This document shows positions 16,863 to 31,311 of a stretch of DNA of 44,368 nt, one piece after another (positions within the stretch are counted from its first letter, which is position 1; each line of letters begins with the position of its first letter). This DNA is from Thermostichus sp. DRC_bins_24. GTDB lineage: Bacteria > Cyanobacteriota > Cyanobacteriia > Thermostichales > Thermostichaceae. The notes beneath the pieces are model-generated. The model did no database searches. It was not told the origin of the DNA and was given only the letters and a program-made list of their open reading frames with translations. The DNA lies in the NCBI GenBank assembly GCA_039794845.1, contig JAUQVK010000097.1, positions 1 to 44,368 of the forward strand. The letters run 5' to 3'. The position numbers and the translations under genes were made by a program.

Positions 16863-18293
16863 TCAACTTTGCTTGTTCAACAGGTCGGCGGCCCATTGCT
16901 GCACCTGCTTGCGGTTGACCTTACCCTGGGGGCTGCGCGGGATCCCTGCACACCAGAGCCAGTGTTTCGGACGTTTGAAGGGGCTCAGTTGGCGGCTCAA
17001 GTGCCGGTTCAGTTGGTTTTCCAGTTCTGTCGGGCTCCCTGTTTTGGGTTTGGGGACAACGACTGCCACCACCTGCTGCCCCCACTCCGCATCCGGCAAG
17101 CCCAACACCCACACATCCTCCACCCAGCCCGTGGCGCGGATCTCCCCTTCCACCTCGGCGGCCATCACCTTTTCCCCGCCCGTCAGGATCAGATCATCCG
17201 CGCGCCCCAGCCAGTACAGGGATCCCTCTTGATCCAGATAGCCCAAATCCCCTGGGACAAAGCTTTGCTGCTGCCAAAGGTGAGGGTAGTACCCCAGGGC
17301 CAACGACTCTGCTTGGATGTGAAGGGTGCCCACGGCCTGACCGGGTAGGGGATCCCCTTGGTCGGTGCAAACCTGGAGAGTGGCATGGGGCAGAGGCCGA
17401 CCCAGACTCTCGTTCCCTTGCAAAAATTGCTCCGGCAATAAGGTGCACACCTGGGAAGCGGTCTCCGTCATGCCATAGGTAGGAGAGAGGGGAAGGTGAA
17501 GCCGGCGGGCCTGTTGCCTCAAGCTGGGCCAAGTGGGGCCACCCCCAACCAAGATGGCACGAAATTGGCGCAGGGCTTCCAGCACCGCCGGCTGGGAGTT
17601 GTGCAAAAGCCGTTGCAGCTGGGTGGGCACAAGCGACAGAAAACTCCCCGGCAAGGGGGGATCCCAACGGTTGGCCTGCTGCTGTTGTTTCCAATCCCAA
17701 AGCACCAACCGGCCGCCGCTCAGCCAGGAGCGGATTGCCTGCATCAAACCGCTGACATGGTACAGCGGCAAAACACAGTAGCTGTGCACGGCCCCGACGG
17801 CAAAATGCTGTTGATGAGCTTTGGCAGATGCGCCGAGGGTGAGCCAGGAGTGGATGGCCCATTTCAGGTTGCCGCCGGAGCCGCCGGTGGGAATACAAAG
17901 GGGTGGCCAATGGGGGTTGGGCAACGCCTTCAGAAGATCCTGGAGGAGCGGATTGAACGGGTTGGGATCCCCCTGCAACCGCCCCTGTCGCCAATACCAA
18001 CCGGATCCCAGGGTTGCTAGAGCCTGTGCCCACTCCCGGGATCCCCAGCTGGGGTTGCCCAAAAACAGCGGGATCCCCAAACGTTGACAGGTCAGAACGA
18101 TCGCCCATACCTGCACGGGATCCGACTCCGCCACCAGCAACGGCACCGTCCCTCCTGCCAAAGGTCGCAGGTGTTGCTCCAGCTCCGATAGCCGCTCCTT
18201 CAGGGCCGGAGAATCGGGATCTTGCTCCGCAAGGTGCGGAGCACCATCTTGCTCCGCAAGGTGCGGAGCACCATCAAGCTTTAAGTCGTGCAT
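16863..18293 (-). CDS. menE: O-succinylbenzoate-CoA ligase
   Basis: PTGGSGGNLK, PLYHVSGL, YGMTETASQ, GDLG and GRADDLILTGGEKV motifs. Start uncertain (18293 or 18314). Confidence 0.88.
   Translation of the reverse strand: MHDLKLDGAPHLAEQDGAPHLAEQDPDSPALKERLSELEQHLRPLAGGTVPLLVAESDPVQVWAIVLTCQRLGIPLFLGNPSWGSREWAQALATLGSGWYWRQGRLQGDPNPFNPLLQDLLKALPNPHWPPLCIPTGGSGGNLKWAIHSWLTLGASAKAHQQHFAVGAVHSYCVLPLYHVSGLMQAIRSWLSGGRLVLWDWKQQQQANRWDPPLPGSFLSLVPTQLQRLLHNSQPAVLEALRQFRAILVGGGPTWPSLRQQARRLHLPLSPTYGMTETASQVCTLLPEQFLQGNESLGRPLPHATLQVCTDQGDPLPGQAVGTLHIQAESLALGYYPHLWQQQSFVPGDLGYLDQEGSLYWLGRADDLILTGGEKVMAAEVEGEIRATGWVEDVWVLGLPDAEWGQQVVAVVVPKPKTGSPTELENQLNRHLSRQLSPFKRPKHWLWCAGIPRSPQGKVNRKQVQQWAADLLNKQS
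18222..18275. repeat. Two tandem 27-bp hairpin repeat units inside menE
   Basis: TTGCTCCGCAAGGTGCGGAGCACCATC x2 directly after GATC; encodes DGAPHLAEQ twice. Confidence 0.92.
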
Positions 18294-18300
18294 AGCAAGA

Positions 18301-18582
18301 TCAAGAGCTGGCACCCACCTCTCCTTGATTCACCGGCAACTCAATCATCAAATCCACTCGGGTGGCCACCAGAGCGATTGCCTGTAACACCGCCCCCATC
18401 TGTTCTTTTAGACTGGTCAATTCCTGCTCCAAAGACTGAACCCGTCCCGCCAGCCCACCAGAAAGATGGCCCTGAATCAAGGCGGTGAGGGTGGCTTCTG
18501 GCGAGGGATCCCCGCGCTCCTGCTGCAGCTGGATCAACTGCTCGTAGACATCCTTGGGCAAAGCAATTGACATCATGTCCAT
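18301..18582 (-). CDS. Small hypothetical protein, possible ribbon-helix-helix N-terminus plus coiled coil
   Basis: MSIALPKDVYEQLIQLQQERG pattern, then heptads; abuts menE. Confidence 0.65.
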   Translation of the reverse strand: MDMMSIALPKDVYEQLIQLQQERGDPSPEATLTALIQGHLSGGLAGRVQSLEQELTSLKEQMGAVLQAIALVATRVDLMIELPVNQGEVGASS

Positions 18583-18724
18583 ACAGTCGCGGCGGTTTTG
18601 CGGATCCCCTGCATTGTAGAGGAATCCCTGTTCGGGATCCGCCTGGGGGGATCCCAGAGGAACTGAGAGGATAGGTTTGGGCTTGGCTTATGATGATCTA
18701 GGTTCAAATCGGGAGGTTGGTGTC

Positions 18725-18838
18725 GTGATCGAGCCAATTTTGTTGGGGATCGTTTTGGGTATGGTGGTGGTTACGTTGGCGGGCTTGTTTGTGGCCGCCT
18801 ACCTGCAGTATCAACGGGGCAACAAGATCGGTTTGTAA
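18725..18838 (+). CDS. petG: Cytochrome b6f subunit V (PetG), 37 aa
   Basis: Not in the ORF track. GTG start after [42 protein letters not shown]. Confidence 0.95.
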
Positions 18839-18879
18839 GGCTGAACGGTTTCGGCAGGCCCGAGATGGATTGAGGTGGC

Positions 18880-20544
18880 ATGGCGATGCACTGGCTGCGC
18901 ACTGTTGCTGCTTTACGGGAGCATGTGGCTACCTGGCGGGGATCCACCGTTGGCTTGGTGCCTACGATGGGATCCCTGCACGAAGGTCATCTCAGCCTGA
19001 TCCGCCGCTGCCGCCAAGAGTGTGACCATACGGTGGTCAGCATTTTCGTCAACCCGCTGCAATTTGGCCCCCATGAAGACTGGGAGCGCTACCCCCGCGA
19101 CGGGGAAGGGGATCGGGCGTTGTGTGCAGCCGCCGGGGTGGATGTTGTCTTTGCTCCGGATCCGGAGGAAATGGGGGCCGATCTTGCTACACAAGGTGCG
19201 GAGCACCATCGGGCCAGAGGCGGTGACCGCACTTGGGTGATGCCCCCCGAATCTCTGCTGCAAACCCTCTGTGCCCCCCATCGCCCCGGCCATTTTCGCG
19301 GAGTGGCGACGATTGTTTTGCAACTGTTGAACATCGTGCAGCCGCAACGGGCCTACTTTGGCCAAAAAGATGCCCAGCAACTGAGGATCATTCAGCGCCT
19401 TGTGCAGGATCTGCAGCTGCCCACCACGATTGTCCCTTGCCCGATTGTTCGGGAAGCAGATGGCCTTGCTTTCAGCTCCCGCAACCGTTATCTTTCGGCA
19501 TCTGAGCGACAGGTGGCCTTGGGGCTGTACCGAGCTTTGCGGCGGGGGTACGACCGTTGGCAAGCAGGGGACACTTCTGCCGAGGGAATCCTCTCGGCAG
19601 CCCGAGCTGAACTCGACCGTGACCCGCAGCTACAGCTGCAGTATCTGGAACTGGTGGATCCACAAACTCTCCAACCCCTCCATCATGTGGAACACGAAGG
19701 TCTCTTGGCCATTGCCGCCTATGTGGGGCAAACTCGCCTCATCGACAACCTGCTGCTCTCACCGGAACCCGCGCCGGAAGATGGGGATCCCCTGCGGGAG
19801 GTGCAACCGGCTGCAAGGCCAGAGGGAACTTCGGCTGTCCGTCGCCCATTGATCGCCATCGATGGCCCGGCCGGGGCCGGAAAATCGACGGTGGCCCGGG
19901 CCGTGGCGGCCCAGCTGCACCTGCTGTACCTGGATACAGGGGCGATGTATCGGGCGATCACCTGGCTGGCGCTGCAGCAAGGGATCCCTTTAGACGACGC
20001 GGAAAAACTGACTCAACTGGCCGCCCAAACCCAGTTGACCTTGAAGAGTGGCACCTCCTCTGTGGAGCCAACCCGCATCTGGGCCAACGGCGAAGAAATT
20101 ACCCAGGCGATTCGCTCCCCGGAAGTCACCCGCTGGGTTTCCCAGGTTTCGGCAGTGCCGGGGGTACGGCAGGAGTTGGTGAAGCGGCAACGCAGCATTG
20201 GCCGAGATGGCGGCGCGGTTCTGGAGGGTCGGGATATTGGCACCCACGTCTTTCCCGATGCGGAGCTGAAGGTGTTTTTGACAGCTTCGGTGGAAGAACG
20301 AGCGCAACGGCGACAACATCAACTGCAAGCGCAAGGGCAACAGGTGGCCTTAGAGGAATTGGAAGCACAAATTCAACAGCGGGATCGCCGTGACAGCGAA
20401 CGGCCCATTTCCCCCCTGCGGCCTGCCCCCGATGCCATTTTGATCAACACGGATCACCTCAGCCAATCGGAGGTGCAAGACAAAATTGTGATGCTGTACC
20501 GGCAGCTGTTGGCCCGGTCGAGCACGCCGCGTTTTGATCAATGA
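18880..20544 (+). CDS. panC: Bifunctional pantoate-beta-alanine ligase / cytidylate kinase
   Basis: VPTMGSLHEGH, RPGHFRGV and FGQKDAQQ, then IAIDGPAGAGKST and EGRDIGT (Cmk). Confidence 0.96.
   Translation: MAMHWLRTVAALREHVATWRGSTVGLVPTMGSLHEGHLSLIRRCRQECDHTVVSIFVNPLQFGPHEDWERYPRDGEGDRALCAAAGVDVVFAPDPEEMGADLATQGAEHHRARGGDRTWVMPPESLLQTLCAPHRPGHFRGVATIVLQLLNIVQPQRAYFGQKDAQQLRIIQRLVQDLQLPTTIVPCPIVREADGLAFSSRNRYLSASERQVALGLYRALRRGYDRWQAGDTSAEGILSAARAELDRDPQLQLQYLELVDPQTLQPLHHVEHEGLLAIAAYVGQTRLIDNLLLSPEPAPEDGDPLREVQPAARPEGTSAVRRPLIAIDGPAGAGKSTVARAVAAQLHLLYLDTGAMYRAITWLALQQGIPLDDAEKLTQLAAQTQLTLKSGTSSVEPTRIWANGEEITQAIRSPEVTRWVSQVSAVPGVRQELVKRQRSIGRDGGAVLEGRDIGTHVFPDAELKVFLTASVEERAQRRQHQLQAQGQQVALEELEAQIQQRDRRDSERPISPLRPAPDAILINTDHLSQSEVQDKIVMLYRQLLARSSTPRFDQ
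19184..19210. repeat. Third copy of the 27-bp hairpin repeat, inside panC
   Basis: TTGCTACACAAGGTGCGGAGCACCATC after GATC (2 mismatches to the menE copies); encodes LATQGAEHH. Confidence 0.9.
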
Positions 20545-31111: not shown

Positions 31112-31311
31112 GGTATGCCCTTTTGTATACAGCCCTTTCGCCAGTCACACATAACAAATATGGACAAATATGGAAGTTGAGATCTACTCTCTGGAGGGCT
31201 AGCCCTCCGGGCCCCGCGAAAGCGGGAGCAGGAAGTACAAGACCTGCCCTGGAAGACCCGCGCAAGGGCGGTAAATCAACTTACACATCGCAAATTACAT
31301 ATAGCAAACAT

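Follow-up and report, generated by a model that had tools for sequence, protein, structure and literature searches.

Small dispersed repeats (SDRs) of the Nostoc group appear to be the closest known kind of element to the repeats analysed here. Elhai et al. 2008 reportedly described SDR1-8 in Nostoc punctiforme and relatives, dispersed repeats of 21-27 nt with unlike sequences that share a compensated secondary structure, and these are said to occur nested in minitransposons and also in tandem. To our knowledge, the Nostoc group has provided the one earlier description of mobile DNA 24-27 nt in length. Rickettsia palindromic elements (RPEs) are approximately 100-150 bp long and their host genes stay functional, and the miniature elements of the IS200/IS605 family, which use a single-strand 'peel and paste' mechanism, insert 3' of a target of 4-5 nt and are at least 100 nt long. 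According to section 3.3 of PMC4390886, SDR5 enters HIP1 (GCGATCGC) precisely between its nucleotides 3 and 4, that is GCG|ATCGC, and the introduction of PMC5861425 reports that SDR-like repeats were not found beyond the Nostocaceae. In excerpts of PMC3116915 and PMC3733652, REP/REPIN are short, dispersed palindromes regarded as non-autonomous mobile DNA, with RAYT transposases; excerpts of the latter add that some REPs lie inside open reading frames (ORFs) and are translated, and that RPEs are inserted in frame in protein genes (PMC3733652). Here we analysed 44,368 nt of Thermostichus sp. DRC_bins_24 (GenBank assembly GCA_039794845.1, contig JAUQVK010000097.1, positions 1 to 44,368; this whole stretch is referred to as the window), in which three 27-nt units lie within the genes menE and panC. 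Sequence comparison indicates, with a probability of about 0.8, that these units are members of a family of non-autonomous, non-coding micro-repeats, restricted to the genus, that has spread by insertion. In the excerpts of the literature searched, these repeats are not described for this lineage.

Three units in menE and panC and their empty sites

The window lies on contig C97 of the source genome (G000), a draft of 3.50 Mb in 115 contigs with 56.9% GC. The units, their presumed targets and their host genes are as follows.

18219 to 18245, + strand: type-1 unit 1, ATC plus the 24-nt core TTGCTCCGCAAGGTGCGGAGCACC (exact core match); antisense to menE, encodes DGAPHLAEQ
18246 to 18272, + strand: type-1 unit 2, same sequence as unit 1 and in direct tandem with it
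18273 to 18275, + strand: ATC triplet 3' of the menE pair, the probable original target by the rule from filled/empty pairs
19181 to 19207, + strand: type-1 unit in panC, with two substitutions in hairpin 1 (TTGCTACACAA); sense, LATQGAEHH (PanC residues 102-110)
19208 to 19210, + strand: ATC triplet on the 3' side of the panC unit, its probable target; sister empty sites read GCCGA(T/C)C(C/A)|GG
16863 to 18292, - strand: menE (O-succinylbenzoate-CoA ligase), host gene, likely start ATG at 18292-18290
18880 to 20544, + strand: panC/cmk fusion, host gene, with an NF010004 match

In the window sequence, positions 18218-18279 (menE) read G-ATC-TTGCTCCGCAAGGTGCGGAGCACC-ATC-TTGCTCCGCAAGGTGCGGAGCACC-ATC-AAGC and positions 19180-19213 (panC) read G-ATC-TTGCTACACAAGGTGCGGAGCACC-ATC-GGG. 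A preliminary description of the window had reported a 27-bp unit twice in tandem in menE and once in panC. This was confirmed; relative to the menE copies, the panC copy has two differing positions, each of which lies in the left arm. The host genes that it had named were upheld as well: the menE reading frame, which reaches a GTG at 18314 in the ORF listing (ORF 16863-18314(-)), scored 825.5 bits to NCBIfam NF005661, O-succinylbenzoate-CoA ligase (cut-off 795), and ORF 18880-20544(+) scored 760.6 bits to NF010004, bifunctional PanC/Cmk (cut-off 524). A 19-mer search of the window allowing up to 3 mismatches gave 5 matches, compared to 0.02 expected from 100 window shuffles; these were 3 matches on the + strand and 2 reverse-strand self-matches of palindromic copies.

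The mobility of the type-1 units is well supported by comparison of related genomes. Exact 27-bp filled/empty differences between species were found at 11 loci. At panC, a clean 27-bp gap was present in 11/11 same-genus orthologues, and 8 more distant orthologues also lacked the segment (19/19 orthologues in total without it). Another unit of the source genome, C25:51474, lies ten codons 5' of the stop of a 615-aa MBL-fold/beta-CASP ORF; this site was empty in 5/5 sisters, and the empty site reads CCCT-ACC|ATC-AGCC. Copies from sister genomes were also aligned to G000 (10 pairs). Six loci were filled in G003, G004 or G008 and had a clean 27-bp gap in G000 (L036, L041, L047, L029, L034 and L035) and one locus was filled in both genomes; the alignments of L028, L033 and L039 were too poor and were not counted. 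The sister regions of C72:21764 were unalignable.

A 1577-aa multi-GAF histidine kinase gene (C35:7610-12340) contains four units at three sites. At site 1 and at site 2, the latter a 54-bp tandem pair, G000 and G004 carry the insertion and G008 and G003 the empty allele. At site 3, where the unit is in reverse orientation, the insertion is carried by G000 and G003, with G008 and G004 having the empty allele. In the G003 copy of site 3 (L120/L122, C9), a further 48-bp insert is nested within the reverse-oriented unit.

A 1083-nt contig from a strain approximately 93% identical to the window (run X2, another hot-spring metagenome) omits exactly 27 bases at 18251 and hence has one menE unit instead of two; the same contig carries the panC unit. 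This strain comparison was made from contigs, not reads, and the best-matching run may be the source of the G000 assembly. Metagenome contigs were seen to end at units in the same comparison. The preliminary description had expected empty sites in sister strains and orthologues free of the 9-aa segments, and both expectations were borne out, by the panC orthologues above and by sister menE genes lacking the segment.

Boundaries, target and structure of the unit

The kinase gene provides filled and empty alleles from which the ends of the unit can be read. At site 1 the empty allele is CCAG|ATGGGC and the filled one CCCG-GTC-core-ATGGGC. At site 2 these are GACT|ATGGCC and GACT-ATC-core-ATC-core-ATGGCC, and at site 3, on the unit strand, AAAAAGCG|ATCCCC and AAAAAGCG-TTC-core-ATCCCC. 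The left triplet therefore travels with the unit: GTC, ATC and TTC are absent from the empty kinase alleles and differ from the target ATG or ATC. The mobile unit is 27 nt long (NTC + 24 nt), of fixed orientation and placed immediately 5' of AT(C/G) without target duplication. The 5' triplet of the unit is mostly ATC, also TTC or GTC (TTC in 20/58 copies borne by MITEs, which are miniature inverted-repeat transposable elements), and left and right triplets showed no correlation over the 17 sister copies. At 12 sites, the triplet following the unit on its 3' side was ATC in 9, ATG in 2 and CTC in 1 (the empty allele of the CTC site is ATC), while ATC makes up 2.1% of trinucleotides (binomial P = 1.5e-13 for at least 9/12).

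The preliminary description had a 24-nt core targeted to GATC and flanked by a 3-bp ATC target duplication. Neither part was supported. The site is X|AT(C/G); the base preceding it was G in 5/9 ATC sites, compared to a GATC share of 47% of NATC in G000, and the left triplet is absent from the empty kinase alleles. In excerpts of PMC4390886, GGGATCCC is identified as the HIP found in the Synechococcus OS-A/B' lineage of hot springs, in keeping with G000. This palindrome is hyper-abundant in G000 (4573 copies) and some unit sites lie in GATC, at a frequency for which the genome background accounts without GATC targeting, but the micro-repeat itself is not a HIP. The earlier proposal that insertion recreates the target, explaining the tandem pair, was retained: tandem pairs and arrays can form because a unit starting with ATC offers a new ...CACC|ATC site at each insertion, so that the unit's own ATC regenerates the target. 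The C25 target ACC|ATC resembles the unit-unit junction CACC|ATC.

The single 9-bp stem of the preliminary description holds for the menE variant, which folds as a 9-bp hairpin (-10.9 kcal/mol, DNA, 37 C), but not for the panC copy, in which this hairpin is broken and solely the 5-bp GGTGC-GGA-GCACC hairpin folds. Covariation in the family was analysed in 42 distinct cores, from copies chosen solely by the invariant right half. In hairpin 1, pair 1-11 was TA in 23 cores and CG in 8, and pair 2-10 was CG in 22, TA in 7 and TG in 7. Watson-Crick cells numbered 60/84, compared to 43.5 ± 3.9 after shuffling (0/2000 shuffles attained 60). Pairs of the long hairpin were frequently mismatched (2-22 in 28/42 cores and 6-18 in 21/42), and the variable N of TTGC-TNC-GCAA is a loop base. 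The covariation favours, as the conserved design, two adjacent mini-hairpins, YYGC-NNN-GCRR and then GGTGC-GGA-GCACC.

Translated copies, family range and nesting

Both insertions, in menE and in panC, are translated and preserve the frame, in agreement with the preliminary description (LATQGAEHH in panC, DGAPHLAEQ twice in menE). The menE pair is read antisense, between MHDLKL and DPDSPALKERL. In-frame starts of menE 5' of the genus-conserved LKERLSELE segment all lie upstream of the unit pair, and the pair is translated because there is no in-frame start between it and the conserved part. In the sister species menE starts 10-12 codons ahead of the conserved LKERL segment, without the DGAPHLAEQ segment, and the NF005661 profile match starts at MenE residue 33, just past the unit pair.

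The units are stop-free in the frames used, as had been stated, and for the menE variant no stop occurs in any of the six frames. We rejected six-frame stop-freeness as a special adaptation, as 22% of random G000 27-mers share this property. The menE copies have N=C at the variable loop base, and they may be those that selection would let through, because the common N=A variant would put a TAG in the menE frame.

In an AlphaFold model of PanC (residues 1-300, 15-sequence alignment; mean predicted local distance difference test, pLDDT, of 85.4), the sole internal segment of low confidence was 102-116 (pLDDT <50), which comprises the insert and a loop of already variable length. PanC of G010 (L009) has another 8-aa extra segment, DMPNGTLS, a few codons past the G000 unit site and unlike the units. 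Tolerant landing places were a surface loop of PanC, the N-terminus of MenE, linkers between domains of the GAF histidine kinase and the C-terminal tail of the MBL-fold nuclease. Copies can persist inside genes because the unit length is a multiple of three, and they would therefore persist where the protein is tolerant and the frame read is stop-free.

Type-1 DNA is found in either orientation and in more than one frame, as well as in intergenic DNA and within MITEs. The dispersed family postulated in the preliminary description is present in G000, where we found 73 matches to the 24-nt core at up to 5 mismatches, 58 exact occurrences of the right half GGTGCGGAGCAC and 94 copies of a generalised type-1 pattern, 48 of them with non-repeated flanks and outside larger repeats. 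A scan of 12 species genomes of the genus for the type-1 unit at up to 2 mismatches gave 21 copies in G000, 11 in G004, 4 in G003 and 3 each in G010 and G008, none in the other 7 genus genomes and none in any of the controls. The exact 17-nt type-1 core was present in 4/401 genomes sampled from the class, all 4 in this genus, and in 0/389 genomes searched outside it.

Two sister families share this design. The type-3 unit, of 27 nt, reads ATC-GTGC-TCC-GCAC-G-ACCC-GGA-GGGT-C (36 copies in G000, 37 in G008, 5 in G010 and 4 in G004). It has a compensatory variant (GTGC/GCAC vs. GTCC/GGAC) and occurs solo or in arrays of 1-4 units within another repeat. The unit of the 24-nt family reads (A/T)TC-GCG-NNA-GCG-K-TGC-GGA-GCA-NN and was found in 12/12 genus genomes, with 2 to 141 copies (141 in G005, 106 in G006, 84 in G008, 14 in G000 and 2 in G009; 0 in the controls). 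The lengths of all three families are multiples of three. Among the 24-nt/27-nt sister families, exact 24-bp gaps between genomes were present at L110, L114 and L116, and an orthologous type-3 site has two units in G000 (C6:65447-65500) and one in G004 (L103, C3:85201); L101, L105, L107 and L109 aligned poorly and were left out of the clean events. The loop of the first hairpin is flipped between L103 and the C6 site (GTGC-GGA-GCAC vs. GTGC-TCC-GCAC), as if the hairpin were inverted. Along contig C1 of G006, the whole chromosome, copies of the 24-nt family appear by eye to cluster by strand, mostly minus at approximately 0.7-1.2 Mb and mostly plus at approximately 2.2-3.0 Mb.

About half of the type-1 copies in G000 occupy one spot of a MITE with ends TACAGCCCTT...AAGGGCTGTA. 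A 17-mer of this MITE gave 139 matches in G000, approximately 120 of them with a MITE end. Basal copies, without a module, read GCTTCC-TCA-GCC at this spot, and copies with the type-1 module have a net gain of 27 nt over them. Other MITE copies bear there a second module of similar design, type-2 (CCGC-TTTC-GCGG, GCCC-GGA-GGGC). A 146-bp copy of this approximately 120-copy MITE lies in the window at 31128-31273 (-), with ends TACCGCCCTT...AAGGGCTGTA. G000 also has a composite repeat of approximately 100 nt ending in ...GGAGCACTGCGACGGATCTTGGTAG, formed by a type-1 unit and optional 14-nt and 30-nt pieces that vary among copies.

31203 to 31223, - strand: type-2 module (CCGC-TTTC-GCGG / GCCC-GGA-GGGC), same superfamily, nested in the MITE copy at 31128-31273
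C16:23100-23290, C44:900-1080, C101:107800-107960, C11:34600-34760, C50:1850-2000 and C85:36650-36790, in G000: composite-repeat copies

Around the menE and panC units, a Pfam search gave no match for the 93-aa ORF at 18301-18582 (-), directly upstream of menE, and a promoter/terminator scan of 18100-19000 gave nothing exceeding shuffles. Among the sequencing runs listed as matching the window there was no RNA run.

Possible routes of movement and known relatives

We propose that a host-encoded, strand-specific enzyme moves the units in trans; this enzyme would bind the small hairpins and cut 5' of AT. Several points weigh against this reading of the family. The search for Y1 HUH/RAYT genes yielded no enzyme for the movement of the units, and G000 is a draft in 115 contigs, in which repeat-borne genes are possibly missing. 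Insertion and precise deletion were distinguished by outgroups at panC and C25:51474 only. For the left/right register of the unit, the evidence comes mainly from the three kinase sites, and the L041 pair slightly favours an alternative register. The covariation count in hairpin 1 (60/84) ignores shared descent, and the MITE-borne copies are related; moreover, 4-base stems are marginally stable and the folding energy favours the 9-bp hairpin for the menE variant. Finally, the 3' flank is less regular in the 24-nt family, with TTC, TTT, TTG and ATC all seen. G000 was also searched for a possible master copy in the form of a gene with inverted units on both sides, and none was found.

It is rather unlikely that a Y1 HUH enzyme (IS200/IS605 TnpA or RAYT) mobilises the units as single-stranded DNA, with the mini-hairpins as minimal left and right ends. 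The fixed orientation relative to an asymmetric target, the lack of target duplication at the kinase sites, the hairpin architecture with its covariation and the formation of tandems would all suit such an enzyme; Y1_Tnp genes are present in the genus, and in G008 the tnpB-like ORF beside a Y1 tnpA harbours a tandem type-1 pair, 0.9 kb away from that tnpA. However, Y1_Tnp (PF01797) matches were found in 12/12 genus genomes and were unrelated to unit counts, contrary to the co-distributed HUH/RAYT that the preliminary description had suggested looking for. G000, the richest in units, has only a 21-bit frameshifted Y1 remnant in its draft assembly, and the single Y1 matches in G009 and G011 contain in-frame stops. 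No conserved single-copy RAYT was found in the genus, the unit has neither a GTAG nor a CGTC tag, and it inserts 5' of its triplet while IS200/IS605 elements insert 3' of their target. Unit orientation in G000 showed no association with local GC skew (50 vs. 52), in a comparison of low power (median absolute skew of 0.015). The tnpB-like ORF of G008 (L025 703-2214, C65) encodes 503 aa with weak OrfB_IS605 and Cas12f1-like TNB matches, and lies next to the Y1 tnpA, which is divergent.

Movement without a dedicated enzyme, by template switching or slippage at hairpins with 2-3 nt of microhomology plus short-patch gene conversion, is unlikely. ATC-like triplets flank the core on both sides, the tandem number varies (1 vs. 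2 in menE and at C6:65447) and a loop flip such as that seen between orthologous copies (GGA vs. TCC) is characteristic of template switching within a strand. However, a pure template-switch origin is unlikely because the donor GTC and the target ATG of kinase site 1 share a single base, too little for a precise return switch. The same exact 27-nt unit was also present at 11 unrelated loci, and the three sequence families retain a single architecture with exact lengths, which points to recognition of structure.

An RNA intermediate followed by reverse transcription is improbable as the route of movement. Elhai et al. 2008 are said to have proposed such a route for the Nostoc SDRs. The fold could equally be an RNA structure, and transcribed genes harbour many of the copies, in either orientation, but the exact boundaries and the DNA-level target triplet need no RNA, and an Rfam scan of 17800-19600 with E up to 1 gave no match.

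The anatomy given in the preliminary description, a 24-bp inverted-repeat element that moves by cut-and-paste into GATC with a 3-bp ATC duplication, is very improbable. The menE and panC copies do read GATC-core-ATC and the 24-nt core is nearly palindromic. Against it stand the three kinase sites, whose left triplet is unlike the target and missing in the empty allele, the uncorrelated triplets of the 17 sister copies, the constant unit orientation relative to an asymmetric triplet and the lack of GATC enrichment over the 47% background. Last, that the units are immobile and the 9-aa segments ancestral or convergent coding repeats, for which solely their translation speaks, was refuted by the panC, sister-copy, C25 and kinase filled/empty sites, with 19/19 panC orthologues lacking the segment and the same DNA found in both orientations, different frames, intergenic DNA and MITEs.

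Under the preferred reading, that of micro-repeats spread by insertion, the units would by analogy be a variant of an already known and barely studied kind of SDR-like element. The Thermostichus units resemble SDRs in length (27 and 24 nt) and in their many copies (94 type-1, 36 type-3 and 14 of the 24-nt family in G000). They resemble them also in the compensatory changes in type-1 hairpin 1 and type-3 (GTGC/GCAC vs. GTCC/GGAC), a comparison with SDRs made by description, and in their nesting in MITEs, their arrays of 1-4 units and the nested 48-bp insert of the G003 copy. They may share the precise insertion site of SDR5: the X|ATC position is the same, but the Thermostichus target is AT(C/G) in general and not restricted to the HIP octamer. 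They differ from SDRs in belonging to another lineage, outside Nostocaceae, in a seemingly different sequence and in having in-frame copies in housekeeping enzymes documented with empty sites.

Like REPs, the units are short, palindromic and dispersed, and some are translated within ORFs. Unlike REPs, they end NTC...CACC without the GTAG/CGTC tag, have an exact length and an exact insertion rule, and neighbouring units form direct tandems instead of inverted doublets; G000 had only 9 unit pairs 300-3500 bp apart, without regular inverted geometry. No associated RAYT was found either (G000, a draft, has only the frameshifted Y1 fragment). RPEs are larger, belong to another phylum and have no known target triplet. 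The miniature elements of IS200/IS605 share the hairpin ends, strand-specific insertion beside a short conserved sequence and the lack of target duplication; by contrast, the Thermostichus unit is 27 nt long and lies 5' of its triplet, and G000 has no intact Y1 gene. The units have a near-palindromic core but lack a target duplication, which sets them apart from classical DDE MITEs with their terminal inverted repeats plus target-site duplication.

With these units, mobile DNA of 24-27 nt is represented in a second, unrelated lineage, as three families that differ in sequence and share one design. Exact boundaries, a simple rule (5' of AT(C/G), no duplication) and a dozen empty/filled sites are now available for tracing the enzyme biochemically. 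The units also break short-read assemblies, since contigs end at them. Short lineage-specific loops in conserved enzymes, such as PanC, MenE and sensor kinases, can be repeat insertions and not adaptations. The X|ATC position common with SDR5 in HIP1 provides a link to the puzzle of GATC-centred palindromes in cyanobacteria. A wider view is possible, and we hold it tentatively: the families might form a genus-wide, active, enzyme-driven system of 24-/27-nt modules, among the smallest mobile DNA known. These modules would be recognised as two mini-hairpins, and a nuclease or recombinase of the core genome, other than a Y1 HUH enzyme, would insert them 5' of AT(C/G) in a strand-specific manner; their lengths would be held at multiples of three because most landing sites are coding. 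If this were true, the system would continually write 8- or 9-residue loops into proteins, and the X|ATC cut common with Nostoc SDR5 would reflect one ancient cyanobacterial mechanism linked to GATC/HIP biology.

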